DNA from: Patescibacteria group bacterium | GTDB taxonomy: Bacteria; Patescibacteriota; Minisyncoccia; Phycocordibacterales; SBAW01 | NCBI GenBank assembly: GCA_016176685.1 | Contig: JACOWS010000002.1 | Location: forward strand, 94,608 to 158,607 | Direction: 5' to 3' | Length of the DNA stretch: 64,000 nt | The notes under the pieces: model-generated | The model's database searches: none | The model's input: only the letters and a program-made list of their open reading frames with translations | What the model was told of the DNA's origin: nothing | Translations under genes and position numbers: made by a program | Shown: one piece after another, positions 1,266 through 60,621 of the stretch | How positions within the stretch are numbered: position 1 is the first letter of the stretch | Layout of the letters: every line of letters begins with the position of its first letter

Positions 1266-1300
1266 AACCTTATTATCCACGACCGTTGTAACTAAGGTTA
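1266..1300. repeat. cassette-1 flanking element, copy A (AACCTTAttatccaCGACCGTTgtaacTAAGGTTA)
   Basis: 7-nt terminal inverted repeat AACCTTA/TAAGGTT. Ends 4 nt from the stop codon of the 1305..1886 gene. Confidence 0.7.
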
Positions 1301-1304
1301 ACGA

Positions 1305-1886
1305 CTAAAGACCGAACCACTGTCGCAACTTCTGATCGTTCTCTATCCCTTCTGCTATAAGATATATAACTCCACCACCAAGTCGTAAATCCACTCTCAA
1401 AAAAGCAACGAGCTCTTCGCAGTCAAATGGACATATCCATACACTATTTTGAATACGCCGGAATCCCGCCTTTTGTAAAGCGAGGCGTAATTTGTCACGC
1501 ATTAGCCGGCGACTTTCCCAAATATCAAACATGACTATCCTCCACTTTCCATCCCACGTTTTTGGAACGCGTATGCGAATATGCTCGGCCGCATGCAACT
1601 TTTCTGCATGCGCCATTCCCTTTTCAGTAAGAGTGGCCGACCAGCCCTGCACGCCTTTCTTCCATTGTACCAGGCCTTTTTGCTCGAGCCGGCGAACGGC
1701 CTGCCTTAGCCGCCGTGTCAGCGTTCCTCTCGTAGATTCTGGGAAAAGATGTTTGCGTAGAACCGCCTCAGGGGCAAGGGCGGCACGCGCGTTTCGGGCA
1801 GTTAAACGAAAAATAGCCAGCGTGATTTTTTGTTGGATTTTCTCCCGTCGCGCGCGCTGTGCTATTTTTTCTTCCAGTTTTTCCAT
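1305..1886 (-). CDS. PaaX-like regulator-type protein: N-terminal winged HTH + C-terminal Cas2-like fold domain (paralog 1 of 3)
   Basis: 193 aa. wHTH-like segment LTRRLRQAVRRLEQKGLV. C-terminal W-D-G-K-W-R-I-V-M-F-D-I...LQKAGFRRIQNSVW matches the Cas2/PaaX-middle-domain pattern (hhVhYD....R......L...G.R.Q.SVF). Paralogs at 39728..40318 and 53698..54280. Confidence 0.7.
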   Translation of the reverse strand: MEKLEEKIAQRARREKIQQKITLAIFRLTARNARAALAPEAVLRKHLFPESTRGTLTRRLRQAVRRLEQKGLVQWKKGVQGWSATLTEKGMAHAEKLHAAEHIRIRVPKTWDGKWRIVMFDIWESRRLMRDKLRLALQKAGFRRIQNSVWICPFDCEELVAFLRVDLRLGGGVIYLIAEGIENDQKLRQWFGL

Positions 1887-1887
1887 G

Positions 1888-1922
1888 AACCTTAGTATAC
1901 ACGACCGTTACACTTATGGTTA
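1888..1922. repeat. cassette-1 flanking element, copy B (AACCTTAgtatacaCGACCGTTacactTATGGTTA)
   Basis: 28/35 identical to copy A. Starts 2 nt from the ATG. In gene orientation it provides TGTATACT 7 nt upstream of the ATG, a leaderless-type -10. Confidence 0.7.
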
Positions 1923-2017
1923 GTTTAATAAAATATACAAACATGGCATATCTATAAAATAAAGTGAGCGCGCAGTGGTAAGCTACGCGCCCGAGAAAAA
2001 CCTGGAACAGGGCTCGA

Positions 2018-2644
2018 TTATCGCAGGGCCCACCAAGAAAACCCGGCGAGTATTGCGGCCACGCCGCCGACCGGCGCCAGAGTTCCCACATCCAGCACCC
2101 CGTGGTAGGGGAACCACGTGGCACCCGACAGTTTCATCGGCGCATGCACACCGATGACCACGTGCACCCACAGCCATGCGGCCGTGAGGTATACCCAGAA
2201 TGGATCCGGGTGTGGGGTAGCGAGATAGAAGAGGCCTATTATTGCAAAAGCCGCTCCCATATACACCACGTGCTCCCACCCGGCCGGGGTGAGGTGCCCT
2301 CCGTAGGTCTGCGCCTCGGGGAACTTTAAGCCGCCTTGGATGTAGGTCCAGTGCATCACCGCGCTGAAGACCAGCGCAATGATGCCGATGACCGCAATCT
2401 GCTTGAGGCCCCACCCCGCCCCATACTTGGCCACCAGAGTGGCCAGGAGGATGGGGAGAATAAAGTCTAGATAGGCTGCGGCCCAGTGGCCGAGTAAGGG
2501 GATACCCTTCTGGAACCCCGCCCCTTTGCTCTGCATCTGCGCGACCGTGAGCATGTTGTCACGGTCGGCAAAAATATAACTGGCGAGGACCAGGACGGCG
2601 AACCACCCGTAGACCTCCACCCAAATAACCCAACTTGTGGGCAT
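2018..2644 (-). CDS. hypothetical polytopic membrane protein
   Basis: 208-aa ORF with ~6 hydrophobic helices. No recognisable catalytic motif. Confidence 0.55.
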   Translation of the reverse strand: MPTSWVIWVEVYGWFAVLVLASYIFADRDNMLTVAQMQSKGAGFQKGIPLLGHWAAAYLDFILPILLATLVAKYGAGWGLKQIAVIGIIALVFSAVMHWTYIQGGLKFPEAQTYGGHLTPAGWEHVVYMGAAFAIIGLFYLATPHPDPFWVYLTAAWLWVHVVIGVHAPMKLSGATWFPYHGVLDVGTLAPVGGVAAILAGFSWWALR

Positions 2645-2754: not shown

Positions 2755-3960
2755 ATGCGCATCTCTTTTTTTGCCGACAATTTTTACCCGGAACTCTCCG
2801 GGATCCCCGACTCTATCCTCATAACCGGCAAAGAGCTCGTGCAACGCGGTCATCAGGTGTGCTACGTGGCGCCGCACTATGGCGCGCGCGATTACGAAGT
2901 AGTCGCGCGCGCACTGCCCCAGAGGCCGGAGTACCTCGAGGGTATGCCGGTTTTCCGGCTTCCTTCGATACCGCTTCTGCGTTCGCCTACCGGACAATCG
3001 CGTATCGCGCTCCCTACCGGACGCTCCTTTTCTTTTTTGCACGCGTTCAAACCCGACATACTCCATACACACAGCCCTTACGGCGCAGGGCTCGAGGCCC
3101 TGCGTGCGGCGAAGATGTTACGCGTGCCGCTTGTAGGGACAAACCATACGCCGGTTGAAGAATTTTATCGTTTTGCACCAAACATCGCGCGGCGGCTGGA
3201 CGCATGGTATTACAACCATTGTGCCCTCATCACCACGCCCTATCAGGGACTCGTCTCCCGCATGCAAGAGAAGGGTTTTAAACGCCCAGGCCGGGCAATG
3301 CCCAACCCGTTGGAGTTGTCGCTTTTTTATCCTGCAAGAAACGAAGAAGAAAGGGAGCATTTGCGTGCAGAAATGGGGCTTTCTGGACCGGTTGTCATAT
3401 ACTCCGGCAGGCTCGCGAGTGAAAAGCGTGTTGATGTTTTGCTCCACGCGATCAAATTATTGGTCCCAAAGTTCCCTTCCCTCACGCTCCTTGTAACGGG
3501 GCTCGGGATTGAGGCCCATTCTCTGCATACGTTGGCGCAAGAGCTTGATATAGAGGGGCGCGTGCGCTTTACCGGGTTTGTACCGCAAGACGAGCTGGCG
3601 CGCTACTATCGCGCTGCGGACGTCTTTGCCATCATGTCTACAGCCGACAGCCAGTCACTCTCTCTTATGCAAGCATATGCAACCGGCATACCGGCCGTGT
3701 GCGCGGACAGCCGCGGACTCCATGACTACACGCCGAGCGACTGCGGATTTTTGGTAGAGCCGGGCAACCACCACACCTTGGCAGGAAAATTGAAACTTCT
3801 TTTAAACGACTCCGCCTTGCGCGAGCGCATGGGTAAGGCGGCGGCGACTTTCGTTAAAACATTCTCCCCCGAAAAAATCGTAACGGAGTGGGAGAAAATC
3901 TACCGCGACGCTATTGTCCGAAATCTTTCTTTAAAAACTGCGAGCGTACAGAGTGGGTAA
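2755..3960 (+). CDS. GT4 (group 1) glycosyltransferase
   Basis: 401 aa. GT-B C-terminal domain with an E..E-like motif region (YSGRLASEKRVDVLL...GIPAVCAD). Confidence 0.85.
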   Translation: MRISFFADNFYPELSGIPDSILITGKELVQRGHQVCYVAPHYGARDYEVVARALPQRPEYLEGMPVFRLPSIPLLRSPTGQSRIALPTGRSFSFLHAFKPDILHTHSPYGAGLEALRAAKMLRVPLVGTNHTPVEEFYRFAPNIARRLDAWYYNHCALITTPYQGLVSRMQEKGFKRPGRAMPNPLELSLFYPARNEEEREHLRAEMGLSGPVVIYSGRLASEKRVDVLLHAIKLLVPKFPSLTLLVTGLGIEAHSLHTLAQELDIEGRVRFTGFVPQDELARYYRAADVFAIMSTADSQSLSLMQAYATGIPAVCADSRGLHDYTPSDCGFLVEPGNHHTLAGKLKLLLNDSALRERMGKAAATFVKTFSPEKIVTEWEKIYRDAIVRNLSLKTASVQSG

Positions 3961-31824: not shown

Positions 31825-38703
<6,879 letters not shown>

Positions 38704-38941
38704 AGTGTTATAGGTTACGCGAGCGAACGGTTAGTAATTGGGGCAAAACTACTTATGTAAAAAGTTGCAAGGACGTTATCCACAACCCATTAACACGAAA
38801 ATGGCGGACACATAGAGCGTCCTCCTTTGCAGGTCCTTATTTCCTCTTAGGTGGCTCCCATTGCCACTTTGTTATTATCGAAACCGAGTCACCGTTACTC
38901 AATCTCCGCCGGCTGGCGGATGCCCTCTTAGTTTCGCTACC

Positions 38942-38969
38942 CAGTATACTCGGCCCATGCAAGCTGTCA
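38942..38969 (-). promoter_or_regulatory. candidate promoter TTGACA-16-TATACT upstream of rpoBC (about 230-nt leader)
   Basis: On the minus strand: cTTGACAgcttgcatgggccgagTATACTg. Confidence 0.4.
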
Positions 38970-39051
38970 AGAGCCGTTTCCACAACCTTGTCACCGTCTC
39001 TTAATTATGGCATAGTGACCAGCAGACAGTCTGACGCGAAAGGAACTGATC

Positions 39052-39588
39052 ATGCACGAGTTAAAACATTATACGGATCCTTTTGACTTTATCCGCTACG
39101 CTCTTTCCTGCGAGCAAAGTTATGCAGGGGGCGGCAAAGCGGCATCCGTTCCTGAAATGCCCGGGTGGAAGGGGTACGAAGTATCAGACCCAGAGCGTAA
39201 ATGGCGGTTGGTTGATCGCTACTGGGTCAACAAGAGTGGAATGTCCGGCGGCTATACCTGCATGTGGGACGGCCGTGACATAAAAATGTACATGACCCTC
39301 CAAGGGTTTTACCCAAAAGAAGCCACGCTATTTCTGCGTGAGGTTCTCAAGTTCACCCACACGCACCATAAAGAGTTCCTCGGCTTCCGTGGTGCTTCGT
39401 GGTTGTCTAGGCCAAAACTCGGCTTCATATACAAAAATCGAATGTCTTCTGCTGAGGGGTTTGATCAGCCAAGCTGCTTCCGTGGCAAAGAGGCCGTCTA
39501 CAGGATTCTTCCGTCTAGTGAAGACGACCCGACCTCTTCAGCAACCCAGGTCGGATATCACCTCTATCAAGGTGCGATGTTCGCTTAA
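39052..39588 (+). CDS. hypothetical protein
   Basis: 178-aa ORF with SD AAAGGA 8 nt upstream. No recognisable domain. Followed by a strong terminator. Confidence 0.55.
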   Translation: MHELKHYTDPFDFIRYALSCEQSYAGGGKAASVPEMPGWKGYEVSDPERKWRLVDRYWVNKSGMSGGYTCMWDGRDIKMYMTLQGFYPKEATLFLREVLKFTHTHHKEFLGFRGASWLSRPKLGFIYKNRMSSAEGFDQPSCFRGKEAVYRILPSSEDDPTSSATQVGYHLYQGAMFA

Positions 39589-39593
39589 AAATA

Positions 39594-39628
39594 GAGCCGG
39601 AGCGCATTTGCGCTCCGGCTCTCAATAT
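39594..39628 (+). terminator. Rho-independent terminator (12-bp stem GAGCCGGAGCGC/GCGCTCCGGCTC)
   Basis: Perfect inverted repeat with 4-nt loop, followed by a T-rich tract. Confidence 0.55.
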
Positions 39629-39676: not shown

Positions 39677-39716
39677 TTTACCATATATACCGCTATAGCA
39701 TTGTTTATGGTAAATA
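39677..39716. repeat. cassette-2 flanking element, copy A (TTTACCATATATACCGCTATAGCATtgtTTATGGTAAATA)
   Basis: 37/40 identical to copy at 40324..40362. Terminal inverted repeat TTTACCATA/TATGGTAAA. Ends 11 nt from the stop codon of the 39728..40318 gene. Confidence 0.7.
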
Positions 39717-39727
39717 CCTTGTTGCAT

Positions 39728-40318
39728 TTATTCTAAATCAAAATGCTGTTTAAGGTGTTTATCGTTCTCTAATCCTTCCGCAATGATATATAGAATGCCC
39801 GACCCAAGCTTTAGATCACTCCGTATGAATGCAATAAGTTCTTCGCAGGGATACGGGTGTACCCAGACGCTGTCTTGCAACATATAAAATCCAGCTTTCT
39901 TAAGGATGTTTCGCAACCGCTCTCGAACTTGCTTGCGTTTCTCCCACACATCAAAAATGACCACCCTCCATTTTCCATCCCATCGACGCGGCTGGCGAAT
40001 TTCTATACGACGGACAACCTCAAGCCGTTCGGCAAATTTCTCACCCTTTGTGGTCAATAGTATTCTCCACTCCTTCCCTTTTCCTTCTTGCTGAACAAGA
40101 CCACGAGACTCTAGACGTCTTACAGCTTGTTGGATACGATACCCAGGCTTACGTTTTTTTGCGAGGTCTGGATCAATGCGCTTTAACAGCCTGAGAGTGT
40201 TTGGAGCTAGTAGCACCATAGAAAGTGCGGCCGCACTGTACAGAGCAAGGACGAGGCCATCCTGTACTCGAACTCGTTTAGTAATTTTTCGGCTTCGCTC
40301 CTCTAACTGCCCCATCAC
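39728..40318 (-). CDS. PaaX-like wHTH + Cas2-fold protein (paralog 2 of 3)
   Basis: 196 aa. RRWDGKWRVVIFDVWEKRKQVRERLRNILKKAGFYMLQDSVWVHPYPCEELIAF. About 45% identical to the 1305..1886 protein over the C-terminal half. Confidence 0.7.
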   Translation of the reverse strand: MMGQLEERSRKITKRVRVQDGLVLALYSAAALSMVLLAPNTLRLLKRIDPDLAKKRKPGYRIQQAVRRLESRGLVQQEGKGKEWRILLTTKGEKFAERLEVVRRIEIRQPRRWDGKWRVVIFDVWEKRKQVRERLRNILKKAGFYMLQDSVWVHPYPCEELIAFIRSDLKLGSGILYIIAEGLENDKHLKQHFDLE

Positions 40319-40323
40319 TCCAG

Positions 40324-40362
40324 TTTACCATATATACCGCTATAGCATAAATTATGGTAAAT
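40324..40362. repeat. cassette-2 flanking element, copy B
   Basis: Direct repeat of 39677..39716. Begins ~5 nt upstream of the GTG/ATG start. Confidence 0.7.
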
Positions 40363-53617: not shown

Positions 53618-53657
53618 ATGTAATATTTACTACACTATAGTTTCTTATTTATTACAT
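53618..53657. repeat. cassette-3 flanking element, copy A (ATGTAATatttACTACACTATAGtttcTTATTTATTACAT)
   Basis: Direct repeat of 54283..54322 (shared ACTATAG..TT.TTATTTATTACA). Terminal inverted repeat ATGTAAT/ATTACAT. Confidence 0.6.
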
Positions 53658-53697: not shown

Positions 53698-54280
53698 TTA
53701 GCCGAGTCTGAAGTGGATGCGCAGAGCCCGATCGTCTTCCACCCTATCAACGATCAGATACAAGACATCCCTACCCAATCCAAGCTCCGCTTTGAGTAAA
53801 ACAACAAACTCTTCACAATTATATGGATATATCCATACGCTATCCTGGAGTCGCACAAAACCGATACCAGTAAGTATTGCCCGCACCTCGCCACGGAGTG
53901 CGTCTTTCAGGGATATCAAAAATCACAACGCGCCACTTTTTATCCCATTTTTTGGGTTTTTTTACCTTGTAGCCGCGAAGTTCCCATTGAGCTACACAAT
54001 TCTTTCCTTTTTTAGTTAGTACAACAAAGGATCCCCGACGGGTCTTTTCCATCATAAGAAATCCCCCTGCGACGAGTCTGGAAATTGCTTTTTTTGTTTG
54101 ATATTTTTTCTGCCGTTCGTACTGCTTCAAAAAAGGTTTTAGCATTGATAGAGCGTTTGGGGCTATGAGTGCTGTGGAGATTACTCCAACCGCAGCTACC
54201 GAGCCGAGTACGGCACGCCGGACAGTGGTCATGCGCATTTTTTTCCGCAGGTCTTTCTCAAGAGATACAGGTGGTTTCAT
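53698..54280 (-). pseudogene. PaaX-like wHTH + Cas2-fold paralog 3, disrupted by a frameshift near 53900-53920
   Basis: Two overlapping ORFs. 53840..54280 ends ...KWDKKWRVVIFDIPERR (then out of frame). 53698..53919 is the C-terminal half ...LRGEVRAILTGIGFVRLQDSVWIYPYNCEEFVVLL. Restoring one A in a GAAAGA run reunites them. Confidence 0.55.
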
Positions 54281-54282
54281 AC

Positions 54283-54322
54283 TTGTAGCGGATAACCTAC
54301 TATAGAATTTTATTTATTACAA
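54283..54322. repeat. cassette-3 flanking element, copy B
   Basis: TTGTAgcggataaCCTACTATAGaattTTATTTATTACAA. Begins 3 nt upstream of the start codon. Confidence 0.6.
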
Positions 54323-54374
54323 TAAGTTTCGATTTGTCACAGATTTGCCACATCAGACTGGTATCAGGAAACAC

Positions 54375-54472: not shown

Positions 54473-55393
54473 TTATGCGCGGGCGCGAGAAATTTGCGCT
54501 GCGATGAACGGGTCGACACCGGACGGGATCTTGGCAGAGACCGGCTCGTTTTTGGAGAAAGTTGGCGCAGTTACCTCGGCTGACTTTTCAACACTCCGCT
54601 CTGCCGTAGGCGAACCAAAGAGAAACGAGTTCAGCGAGCGGTAGATGCCGGTCTGTACGCGCTTGACCACCAAGAGGTACGCGATGAAGAAGGCCCACAG
54701 CGCGAGGAAGCCCCAGTAGAGCGCGGTGCCAACCGGCCCCAGCTCCAAGCCCGTGTAGGGCACCTGCGAAAGGGTCACATACGGAGTGGTCGGGTTGTTG
54801 TAGACAACCGGGTTGTATTTGTAGCAGTTGGGATAGGTACCGTACCAGCCAGACTGACAGGCGGGCTGCGTGTAGGTATTGTAATAATTGTTGACCGGCT
54901 GTACCACCTGCGTCGCAGGAATATTGACCGTTACCGTATTGTTGTTGGTGTTAGTGTTGGTAACGGTAGTGGTCTGTGTTTGCTGTTGCTGTTGTGTTTG
55001 GGTCTGCGTCTGCGAACCGCCGCCGGTGGAGCCGGACGGGCCGTACGCAAAGCCGTAGTTGCTGTAAAAACCAGGAGAGGAATACGAGTATGAGGGATAG
55101 GAGTAAGAAGGAGTGGAGTAGCTGTACGAAGGATACGAATAGTCAATTGAGGAGGTGTAGCTCGGAGTATAGTAGTCGTAGGATGGATAAGAGTAGTCAA
55201 TGGACGACGTGTAGCTTGGAGTGTAGTAGTCGTAGGAAGGGTATGAGTAGTCTATAGAGTCGGTGTAGCTGGGGTAGTAGCCATAGTCTGCCGCATGAGC
55301 AACAGCCGGTGTGATAACCGGAGCGACAGAGAACACAAGCGCCGCAAAAGCGATGCTTACTGCACGAGGTGTGTTGGTCATGCTGTTTTTCAT
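54473..55393 (-). CDS. secreted Tyr/Ser/Pro-rich repeat protein with polyQ/T linker and C-terminal TM segment preceded by VPYTG
   Basis: 306 aa. Signal peptide. 3x 18-aa repeat SIDYSYPSYDYYTPSYTS then YSYPSYSYSSP heptad-like units. TQTQTQQQQQTQTTT. C-terminal VPYTG-LELGPVGTALYWGFLALWAFFIAYLLVV-KR. Confidence 0.7.
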   Translation of the reverse strand: MKNSMTNTPRAVSIAFAALVFSVAPVITPAVAHAADYGYYPSYTDSIDYSYPSYDYYTPSYTSSIDYSYPSYDYYTPSYTSSIDYSYPSYSYSTPSYSYPSYSYSSPGFYSNYGFAYGPSGSTGGGSQTQTQTQQQQQTQTTTVTNTNTNNNTVTVNIPATQVVQPVNNYYNTYTQPACQSGWYGTYPNCYKYNPVVYNNPTTPYVTLSQVPYTGLELGPVGTALYWGFLALWAFFIAYLLVVKRVQTGIYRSLNSFLFGSPTAERSVEKSAEVTAPTFSKNEPVSAKIPSGVDPFIAAQISRARA

Positions 55394-60419: not shown

Positions 60420-60565
60420 AGGCTTTACCTATTTATTATACCAAATACCGGCCTATTTTGAAAGGGTGTGGATAGCCAATCCACCTTGCAAAACAAGGGT
60501 TCTAGGGGAGCGACCGGCACTTTGTTTTTTAAAGTCTATTGTATAAATAGGGTCAATTATAAATT

Positions 60566-60600
60566 AACCTTAATCGTAACGACCGTTATAGCTAAGGTTA
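60566..60600. repeat. solo copy of the cassette-1 element (AACCTTAatcgtaaCGACCGTTatagcTAAGGTTA)
   Basis: 28/35 identical to 1266..1300. Lies in the pheT-gyrB intergenic region with no adjacent PaaX-like gene. Confidence 0.6.
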
Positions 60601-60621
60601 AAATGTTTTAAATAATTGATG

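Follow-up and report, generated by a model that had tools for sequence, protein, structure and literature searches.

A small PaaX-like gene bracketed by two palindromes in Patescibacteria: a putative autorepressor unit carrying its own operators

Why should a short bacterial gene be closely flanked, on both sides, by copies of the same sequence? The question is raised by an open reading frame (ORF) in a 64,000-nucleotide (nt) stretch of DNA from a Patescibacteria group bacterium (assembly GCA_016176685.1, contig JACOWS010000002.1, positions 94,608 to 158,607 of the forward strand), which we call the window. The ORF, 1305..1886 on the minus strand, codes for a protein of 193 amino acids (aa) and lies between copy A (AACCTTATTATCCACGACCGTTGTAACTAAGGTTA, 1266-1300) and copy B (AACCTTAGTATACACGACCGTTACACTTATGGTTA, 1888-1922) of a repeat; its stop codon is 4 nt from copy A, and the A of its ATG is 1 nt from copy B. 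An earlier, sequence-only reading of this DNA took the protein for a DNA-binding winged helix-turn-helix (wHTH) joined to a Cas2-like fold, and offered three explanations for the repeats: a self-recognising pair of operators, a selfish or mobile mini-cassette, and sites of site-specific recombination. The first of these is the best supported, except for the part of it that saw a terminator in the downstream copy: the unit would be a PaaX-type repressor with long-spaced inverted-repeat operators, and it belongs to a large, uncharacterised family, for which we use the name mini-PaaX.

The two repeats of this unit (cassette 1) were found where they had been placed. A position-by-position count gave 28 identical bases out of 35, and the consensus AACCTTA-N7-CGACCGTT-N5-TAAGGTTA is matched by copy A without mismatch and by copy B with one. 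With up to three mismatches allowed, the pattern occurs at only three places in the window, the two copies and a solo site at 60566-60600 that had also been noted, whereas 0 occurrences were expected from 100 dinucleotide-preserving shuffles. The 7-nt terminal inverted repeats (AACCTTA/TAAGGTT) ascribed to both copies are perfect in copy A, but one base is mismatched in copy B (TATGGTT). The repeat is real, its size was slightly underestimated: the full element is an even-length palindrome of 36-40 bp centred on CG-AC-CG. Copy A, a tripartite palindrome with the core CGACCG, is the putative downstream operator of cassette 1, and copy B, which overlaps the predicted promoter of the gene, is the putative upstream operator.

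The encoded protein is a truncated relative of PaaX, consisting of an N-terminal helix, a winged helix, a linker and a Cas2-like domain, but devoid of the C-terminal effector domain of PaaX. The domain assignment of the earlier reading was confirmed by both profile and structure comparisons. Pfam PF20803 (PaaX_M, the central Cas2-like domain) matched residues 109-182 with an E-value of 3.9e-20, and the match to CRISPR_Cas2 (E 2e-5, score 25.0) was barely above its cut-off of 23.8. The NCBIfam Cas2 model TIGR01573 scored 31.3 against a cut-off of 24.5, over positions 2-43 of its 96 only, i.e. under half of the profile, and the PaaX model TIGR02277 was matched partially (44.5 bits, cut-off 264.55). 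No Pfam match to PaaX_C was found in the protein, the sequence of which stops at residue 193. The Pfam model of the N-terminal PaaX domain was not matched either, though there is a winged helix in the AlphaFold2 model (mean pLDDT 81), and Foldseek aligned 135 columns with the PaaX structure 8a39 (E 2e-5). In the model a long N-terminal helix is followed by helices at residues 40-47 and 55-69, of which the latter is the predicted recognition helix, a hairpin at 73-86 and a linker helix; residues 115-190 form a beta-alpha-beta-beta-alpha-beta arrangement, the ferredoxin-like fold of Cas2. The best Foldseek match in the Protein Data Bank was E. coli W PaaX (8a39), followed by Rv0674 (3kfw) and a PaaX-like regulator of Jannaschia (3l09), and the C-terminal half also matched Cas2 chains, which ranked below the PaaX-type structures. 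In a pairwise alignment with the Sulfolobus Cas2 protein SSO8090 (3exc), the invariant D121 falls on the Asp of the 'YD' motif of Cas2, and a 'RIQ-S' motif is common to the two proteins. The invariant polar residues of the Cas2-like domain are D112, R116, D121, R130, R134, Q146, S148, E157, E182 and D184.

As the earlier reading had claimed, the same layout recurs at 39.7 and 53.6 kb, with paralogous genes and with repeat pairs of their own. A tblastn search of the window found one paralogue, 45% identical to the cassette 1 protein, at 39734-40315 (-), and another as a match split over two frames at about 53710-54172 (-). The gene of cassette 2 (39728..40315, minus strand; PaaX_M E 6.9e-20) is bracketed by TTTACCATA...TATGGTAAA palindromes, with the repeat motif TTTACCATATATACCGCTATAGCAT...TATGGTAAA at 39677 and 40324. 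Its putative downstream operator (39677..39714) has the arms TTTACCATA and the core GCTATAGC, and the putative upstream operator (40324..40361) ends 8 nt ahead of the ATG, with GGAG in between. The third gene (53700..54280, minus strand) is frameshifted and probably a pseudogene. Its putative downstream operator (53618..53657, arms TGTAATA, core ACTATAGT) is in a good state, the upstream palindrome at about 54290-54325 is half-decayed and has lost one arm, and the repeat pair reads ACTATAG...TTTATTTATTACA at 53634 and 54299. The frameshift falls after '...FDIPER', and the region 53700-54325 has the appearance of a decaying copy. The suspected co-divergence of repeat and protein is real and can be generalised to the family; the paralogues are at most 45% identical and have different arms. 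When the window was scanned for palindromes with at least seven perfect outer pairs around a central C[G/T]RY[C/A]G, 15 raw matches were obtained against 0-3 in shuffled sequences. Seven are listed as distinct and non-nested. Cassette 2 is represented by its two copies, cassette 3 by the downstream one, and copy A and the solo site are also among the seven; copy B is absent solely because of its arm mismatch. No known RNA family of Rfam, CRISPR repeat families included, was matched in the window.

The bracketed arrangement is general. The family comprises 547 clusters at 50% identity (E <= 1e-30), and a scan of one genome per species found at least 593 loci. The best 80 of these all come from Patescibacteria lineages (Adler-, Kaiser-, Nomura-, Taylor- and Zambryskibacteria, Paceibacterota) or from unclassified metagenome-assembled genomes, with seven assemblies giving two loci each. 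To assess the bracket, the best ungapped match between the 150 nt before the start and the 150 nt after the stop was compared with control windows of the same locus. It exceeded every control window in 70 of 77 testable homologous loci (~90%), showing that homologs elsewhere are flanked likewise. In a stricter, independent palindrome scan, 53 of the 77 loci had a site just before the gene and 52 had one just past it, and the rest of the roughly 415 kb of flanks gave almost nothing. Second copies of the cassette, tandem or decayed, were not found within 3 kb in any locus. In most members about 20 hydrophobic residues lie between basic ones in the N-terminal helix (residues ~17-40, 1767-1838 in the window). 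By eye this stretch, also in cassettes 2 and 3, is membrane-anchor-like, and the helix of the cassette-1 subfamily contains several arginines; judged from the sequences, some family members may be membrane-tethered.

The anatomy of the site was studied on 69 pairs of copies, two from the window (cassettes 1 and 2) and 67 from other loci, aligned on the palindrome centre. The element has variable outer arms of 8 bp, a loose spacer and a core C-[G/T]-R-Y-[C/A]-G. Identity between the two copies of a pair is 0.81-1.00 at distances 1-4 from the centre and 0.84-0.94 at 11-18, but 0.52-0.83 at 5-10, and the internal symmetry runs parallel, being high at 1-4 and 11-18 and lower at 5-10. All 69 upstream and all 69 downstream copies have C at -3 and G at +3. 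Core position 2 is G/C in about two thirds and T/A in the rest, and the central pair is always purine-pyrimidine (AC, GT, AT or GC). The outer arms vary among paralogues and genera, the core is constant. We also considered AC/GT 'flips' of the centre (e.g. in loci L020, L021 and L040) as a sign of inversion or recombination, and rejected this because the centre is just purine-pyrimidine with degenerate symmetry. The conservation profile is that of a site read by a symmetric dimer via two separate surfaces, and neither that of a sequence simply copied nor that of an RNA stem.

The upstream copy appears to combine operator and promoter. Its centre is 17-19 nt ahead of the A of ATG in 31 of 69 loci (~45%), cassette 1 included, and in this leaderless class a -10-like hexamer occupies positions +6 to +11 from the centre in 23 of 31 upstream copies, as against 3 of 31 downstream copies. 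The leaderless -10 element proposed earlier for cassette 1 fits this geometry: the hexamer TATACT, read from the sequence in the spacer of the upstream operator (1894..1899, minus strand), ends 7 nt ahead of the A of ATG, so that the transcript would begin on the start codon. The right-hand spacer is the least conserved part between the copies because the -10 lies in this loosely constrained segment. An intrinsic-terminator-like hairpin with a T-run (1966..1992, minus strand, from a pattern scan) closes the upstream gene (2018..2644), therefore cassette 1 would rely on its own promoter. At other loci the palindrome is 8-30 nt further upstream, and a Shine-Dalgarno-like GGAG precedes the ATG; cassette 2 is a member of this leadered class, because of the distance and the GGAG described above.

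The site recognised by E. coli PaaX is TGATTC(N27)GAATCA, a long-spaced inverted repeat, and the middle domain of that protein was described as a dimerisation motif (PMC9493321). Half-sites about three helical turns apart are therefore normal for such an architecture, and the spacing of the arms from centre to centre, about 29 bp in mini-PaaX sites vs. 33 bp in the E. coli site, is compatible in geometry. Dependence between protein and site was estimated in the 69 loci as mutual information, with average product correction (APC), between alignment columns and half-site positions. The correlation between recognition helix and repeat that the earlier reading had proposed to look for was present: residues 58, 59, 60 and 62 of the predicted recognition helix covary with arm positions 14, 17 and 18. 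The strongest arm pair was residue 58 and position 17 (A accompanies Tyr in 14 of 16 cases, and T accompanies Glu in 10 of 12). Next came position 18 with the same residue, and position 14 with residues 62 (G accompanies Gln62 in 16 of 16) and 60. This helix (helix 3) makes up only 15 of 154 columns, yet 13 of the top 40 arm pairs involve it. Core positions 2 and 4 covary with residues 125, 127, 131 and 147 of the Cas2-like domain, which accounts for 13 of the top 20 core pairs. The highest value was 0.408 vs. a maximum of 0.314 in 30 label permutations, a control that ignores phylogeny. Simpler discriminators failed. No single protein column predicts the core type perfectly, e.g. residue 147 is Asp in 24 of 24 loci of the CTATAG type, but also in 13 loci of the CGRYCG type, and arm identity correlates weakly with the identity of both the wHTH and the Cas2-like domain.

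On these grounds we consider it likely that the two repeats are cognate operators of the product of the bracketed gene, and that the gene is autorepressed. A dimer would sit on the 36-40-bp palindrome with its two recognition helices, one in the winged helix on each side, on the 8-bp outer arms (positions 11-18), and with the Cas2-like dimer over the core, in which the outer C and G are invariant; the 6 bp between arm and core would be largely free. In the upstream operator this free spacer would hold the -10, with the transcript starting from the A of ATG, thus binding would shut off the gene. The downstream operator would serve as an auxiliary site, forming a loop of about 620-700 bp with the promoter site, or blocking polymerases that leave or enter the gene; for such a loop or roadblock role we see even chances. 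Promoter-operator, gene and second operator would make up one self-contained unit, inherited and occasionally inserted elsewhere as a whole. Taken as a single statement, the proposal of a self-contained unit, in which an autorepressor gene is accompanied by two cognate operators of tripartite build, seems on balance probable to us.

A few additional cognate sites, such as the one in the pheT/gyrB gap, would widen the reach of the unit. This solo palindrome of the window (60564..60601) is of the cassette-1 type in arms and core, and is located 21 nt past the stop codon of pheT, about 145 nt ahead of gyrB. A scan of metagenomes for AACCTTA-N7-CGRYCG-N7-TAAGGTT found 24 loci, and in seven of them (L086, L087, L092, L100, L101, L103, L108) a family gene is beside the site. 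The solo site recurs 17-21 nt past the pheT stop in L094, L098, L089 and L107, with differences mostly in the spacer; gyrB is downstream of it in the first three, and the sequence of L107 ends before gyrB. More distant genomes have a full cassette with the same arms instead, between pheT and gyrB in L087 and just upstream of gyrB in L108 and L092. The proteins of these gyrB-side cassettes represent another subfamily; the 12 best matches to cassette 1, which go down to 45% identity, do not include them. Other solo sites are just past ruvB, msrA, gyrB or rnr, or between convergent genes, and that of L097 is past a terminator, 81 nt before a small gene. A classical gyrB operator was rejected as an explanation of the pheT site: the conserved promoter-like sequence of gyrB, TTCAAA-16-TATAAT, is about 100 nt from the palindrome. 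By their location, solo sites would be more in keeping with a roadblock or boundary than with promoter control of the classical kind. They are rare, with one in the 64-kb window and one clear extra in the approximately 415 kb round the 77 cassettes. In the relatives a gene for a 215-aa membrane protein and a bidirectional terminator lie between the solo palindrome and gyrB (L098 860-910, L089 975-1010); the window (60480-60530) and L094 retain half of this terminator (GTGCCGGTCGCTCCCC), a deletion scar.

It must be noted that several points weigh against the operator interpretation. Of the 24 metagenomic sites with the same arms, 17 have no family gene next to them, and many lie past stop codons or between convergent genes, where classical operators do not sit. 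The covariation was calculated with no correction for ancestry, and is supportive rather than conclusive. The invariant polar residues, D121 included, may be more than a pure dimerisation or DNA-contact role explains. An autoregulator whose main targets are its own flanks is of no obvious benefit to the cell, and the model gives no reason for the constant position of the second site, downstream of the gene rather than upstream. Finally, the analysis established the anatomy, its generality, the fold and the covariation, and the whole mechanism, i.e. binding, repression and looping, is deduced from sequence.

A selfish or toxin-like purpose has to be considered because the own flanks are the main targets, the paralogues are many, and the invariant residues of the Cas2-like domain look catalytic. 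The unit could be a fused toxin-antitoxin-like or defence-like module, in which a Cas2-like nuclease is the effector and the winged helix autoregulates; the operators would then be real, and the purpose would be addiction or defence. The TIGR01573 score above its cut-off, the PADLOC Cas2 match (E 1e-8), the many invariant polar residues with D121 on the Asp of 'YD' in 3exc, and the self-contained nature of the unit with its many diversifying paralogues, patchy insertion and few external targets would all agree with this. However, there is no second gene and no known defence gene among the neighbours, PADLOC gives only generic Cas2 and weak winged-helix matches, the equivalent domain of PaaX was described as a dimerisation motif, and the covariation of core bases with residues of the Cas2-like domain fits DNA reading, thus we find such a module unlikely.

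With both of its palindromes the unit has been inserted between conserved neighbours. The search for empty sites in related genomes, suggested by the sequence-only reading, was successful at trmD/rpoBC. In four relatives trmD is followed by the fused rpoBC within about 270-700 nt, with a conserved promoter and leader, and these empty gaps contain neither the gene nor a palindrome; in L109 the large downstream gene has no Pfam entry, but it is preceded by the same leader. In the window the leader is at about 38700-38990, and some 1.4 kb with cassette 2 and a convergent 178-aa ORF separates it from trmD. Insertion into an existing solo site with duplication of that site is not supported here, as the empty gaps carry no palindrome, but it may have occurred at pheT/gyrB. 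In L007 the unit is between rpsG and fusA, and the 3' end of rpsG is present on both sides of the cassette (2842-2905 and 3650-3710) with 84% identity over 61 nt. By our own count 9 of the 10 differences in the 54-nt coding core are synonymous, therefore the two copies evolved as coding sequence in separate lineages and were then joined, probably by recombination. Outer duplications of neighbouring genes are also found in L032, L039 and L065. Where insertion footprints are visible, they end 20-95 nt or more beyond the palindromes. The unit is cargo that takes its two sites along. Its behaviour is not that of a transposon, and its junctions are not at the palindromes.

These observations bear on the selfish mini-cassette of the earlier reading. 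In that explanation the palindromes would be terminal repeats of an insertion-sequence-like element of about 700 bp, the ends of which are bound, and the core cut, by the wHTH-Cas2-fold protein. Whole-unit insertion, between otherwise adjacent neighbours at both trmD/rpoBC and rpsG/fusA, is the part that holds, and there is more that would suit a selfish element: each palindrome is both a direct and an inverted repeat, genomes can have several diverged copies (three in the 64-kb window and, among the best 80 loci, two in each of seven assemblies), one copy, cassette 3, is decaying, in L007, L032, L039 and L065 the unit lies between longer duplicated stretches of target DNA, D121 corresponds to the Asp of 'YD' in Cas2, and the pheT/gyrB gap contains either a solo palindrome or a full cassette. 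The upstream repeat of autoregulated insertion sequences overlaps their promoter, a likeness which we also count in favour. The rest did not hold. Target-site duplications were looked for at 69 loci, and matches of 3-8 nt between the flanks at offsets 16-23, just outside the palindromes, were no commoner than in a shifted control. Pfam, NCBIfam and PHROGs gave only PaaX_M, Cas2 and weak winged-helix matches, with no transposase, integrase or HUH domain detected, and searches of viral contigs, phages and plasmids gave no relatives. The footprints end beyond the palindromes and the block in the window carries another gene as well, near-identical copies within a genome are lacking, with paralogues no closer than the 45% and different arms mentioned above, and orthologues of 65-77% identity keep the same downstream genes, GT2 and then PAP2. 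We regard a selfish element as quite improbable. The same applies, with still less confidence in the idea, to the bolder variant of a hitherto unrecognised class of autonomous DNA elements built round a Cas2-fold domain, in which the dimer would recognise, and perhaps nick or cut, the core, and the repeat-gene-repeat unit would spread and diversify in Patescibacteria. If this were true, we would be dealing with a free-living Cas2 relative able to read palindromic repeats on its own, with a bearing on how the tie between Cas2 and CRISPR repeats arose, and with a naturally diversified set of programmable readers of 40-bp DNA.

Recombination sites, the remaining proposal of the earlier reading, would make the gene excisable from between its direct copies by a host recombinase of the Xer type and turn solo copies into scars or landing sites. 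Core sites of recombinases have inverted arms round a short centre, similar in size and shape to the palindromes, and the pheT/gyrB gap with a solo palindrome in the window, L094, L098 and L089, but a full same-arm cassette in L087, is what such exchange might leave; but this is very unlikely, as the crossover region would need identity in both partners and the central dinucleotide differs freely within many loci (AC vs. GT, AT or GC, e.g. in L005, L007, L020, L021, L040 and L050), the spacers of the two copies diverge (0.52-0.83), the empty trmD/rpoBC sites of four relatives contain no solo palindrome, the gyrB-side cassettes encode proteins of a subfamily other than that of cassette 1, and no recombinase gene is linked.

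The downstream copy was thought by the earlier reading to be a hairpin terminator, and one could suppose that it is an RNA-level element, a 3' terminator or stabiliser, whose likeness to the upstream copy is incidental or due to gene conversion. Downstream and many solo copies are indeed 0-80 nt past stop codons, and some members are perfect palindromes with 16-20 pairing positions per arm. The other observations make it hardly credible. T-runs follow the downstream copy in 7 of 69 loci, no more often than the upstream copy (6 of 69). The RNA hairpins of the four window sites have little stability, between -8.8 and -13.9 kcal/mol with z-scores from -0.5 to -2.5, that of the cassette 1 downstream copy having -8.8 kcal/mol and z -0.5, and the pattern scan reported no terminator at 1266-1300. 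Pairing is poor at positions 5-10, and it is specific bases, not mere pairing, that are kept in arms and core. In leaderless loci a transcript made from the gene's own promoter would not include the upstream copy. Cassette 2 has a genuine 14-bp, G+C-rich bidirectional terminator (39593-39622) beyond the palindrome, and the order stop-palindrome-terminator is also seen after pheT in L098 and L089. For these reasons the terminator was rejected. A general function as promoter or operator of the next gene was rejected too: in 72 loci the downstream neighbour is co-directional in 43 and convergent in 29, and of the 69 downstream copies 1 has a -10-like hexamer at the offset of the promoter. Of the two copies, the downstream one has the slightly higher symmetry. 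In cassette 1 it is located about 54 nt upstream of the ATG inferred for a GT2 gene (1212), and contains a weak promoter-like TTAACC-18-GATAAT (-) facing this gene. The order mini-PaaX, GT2, PAP2 is retained in orthologues of 77% and 65% identity, and GT2-PAP2 follow in three genomes. Because of the promoter-like sequence and the conserved gene order a local regulatory role of this copy on GT2 is possible.

It is instructive to compare the putative autorepressor unit with known systems. PaaX of E. coli and Pseudomonas (8a39, 3l09), which represses the catabolism of phenylacetate, likewise begins with a winged helix and continues with a central Cas2-like domain, and it represses its own promoter from a long-spaced inverted repeat, to which we liken the predicted binding of mini-PaaX. 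PaaX proteins, however, have about 305-316 aa and a C-terminal domain for the effector phenylacetyl-CoA, whereas mini-PaaX proteins have about 190 aa and lack it; the mini-PaaX operator has an additional, invariant core, and a second operator is always past the stop codon. No paa genes were noticed near mini-PaaX, and in the searches made the family was found only in Patescibacteria. With Cas2 the protein has in common the ferredoxin-like fold, the first strand 'hhhh-F/Y-D-I/V' and the 'RIQ-S' motif, and in Cas1-Cas2 complexes Cas2 dimers lie along duplex DNA. It differs from Cas2 in the fused winged helix and in the exactly two palindromes round the gene, which are not an array. No CRISPR array or array-like repeat family was found in the window and none was noticed at the homologous loci, which have housekeeping neighbours; cas1 was not searched for.

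A repressor gene between or near its cognate operators is also known from lambda (OL...cI...OR), lac O2 and gal OI, where distant operators form loops, and lambda-type repressors and their operators, one of which overlaps the repressor's own promoter, diverge together as an exchangeable specificity module. Unlike in these systems, there is a single 36-40-bp site on each side, and a loop would enclose only the gene of about 580 nt; outward-facing regulated promoters are in general not evident, and no phage context was found. Insertion sequences and REPtrons (RAYT plus REP) resemble the unit in that a gene is abutted by repeats it recognises (a prediction in our case), with the upstream repeat over the promoter, in the joint divergence of protein and repeat, and in the extra repeat copies elsewhere, but mini-PaaX has no DDE, HUH, serine or tyrosine enzyme domain, no target duplications, and its solo copies are rare. 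The genes of B. subtilis RTP, a winged-helix dimer, and of E. coli Tus at TerB are located by their own sites and are autoregulated, and further intergenic sites act as polar roadblocks. Mini-PaaX differs from both in having symmetric sites and many paralogues of different specificity per genome.

We know of no characterised transcription factor in the ultra-small Patescibacteria. For each member of the mini-PaaX family the presumed pair of protein and site can be read directly from the genome, and dozens of cognate protein/operator pairs would provide data on the specificity of the winged helix (arms) and, unexpectedly, of a Cas2-fold domain (core). A repressor gene strictly bracketed by its own sites and moving with them as a unit raises the question whether it regulates, insulates or is selfish. 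The names given to such proteins are an annotation problem. Public records P0001, P0044, P0050, P0063 and P0094 bear the NCBI pipeline name 'CRISPR-associated endonuclease Cas2', and some are 'PaaX' in JGI. The Cas2 annotation is misleading, because a winged helix is fused to the domain, no CRISPR array was found in the window, and two palindromes surround the gene instead. Judged by titles and abstracts, we found no description of the mini-PaaX family in the literature, and 'PaaX' and 'Cas2' occurred together in no paper.

Some minor observations were made along the way. In L066 (1732-2094 and 3665-4894) the cassette has two notable neighbours, a small ORF resembling a four-helix bundle and an ORF for a reverse transcriptase (409 aa, YVDD motif). 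About 555 nt upstream the palindrome of this cassette is found a third time in degenerate form, and the DNA in between contains no remnant of a gene. The 178-aa ORF next to cassette 2 (39052-39588, plus strand) lies within the ~1.4-kb block that is absent from the trmD/rpoBC gap of the relatives, and may have come with the cassette. In the window rpoB and rpoC are fused in an ORF of 2292 aa (31825-38703, minus strand). The region upstream of it (38704-38990) contains a CTTGACA...TATACT promoter followed by ...GAAAC..GATTGAGTA.CG...GGTTTCGATA..., it is conserved in L109-L112 and has no Rfam match; it may be a structured leader. Three 54-nt tandem repeats (55099-55260) in the ORF 54473..55393 (minus strand) encode a Tyr/Ser-rich repeat of a predicted membrane or surface protein, and a low-complexity protein like this one adjoins thrS in L097, beside the AACCTTA-type solo palindrome.

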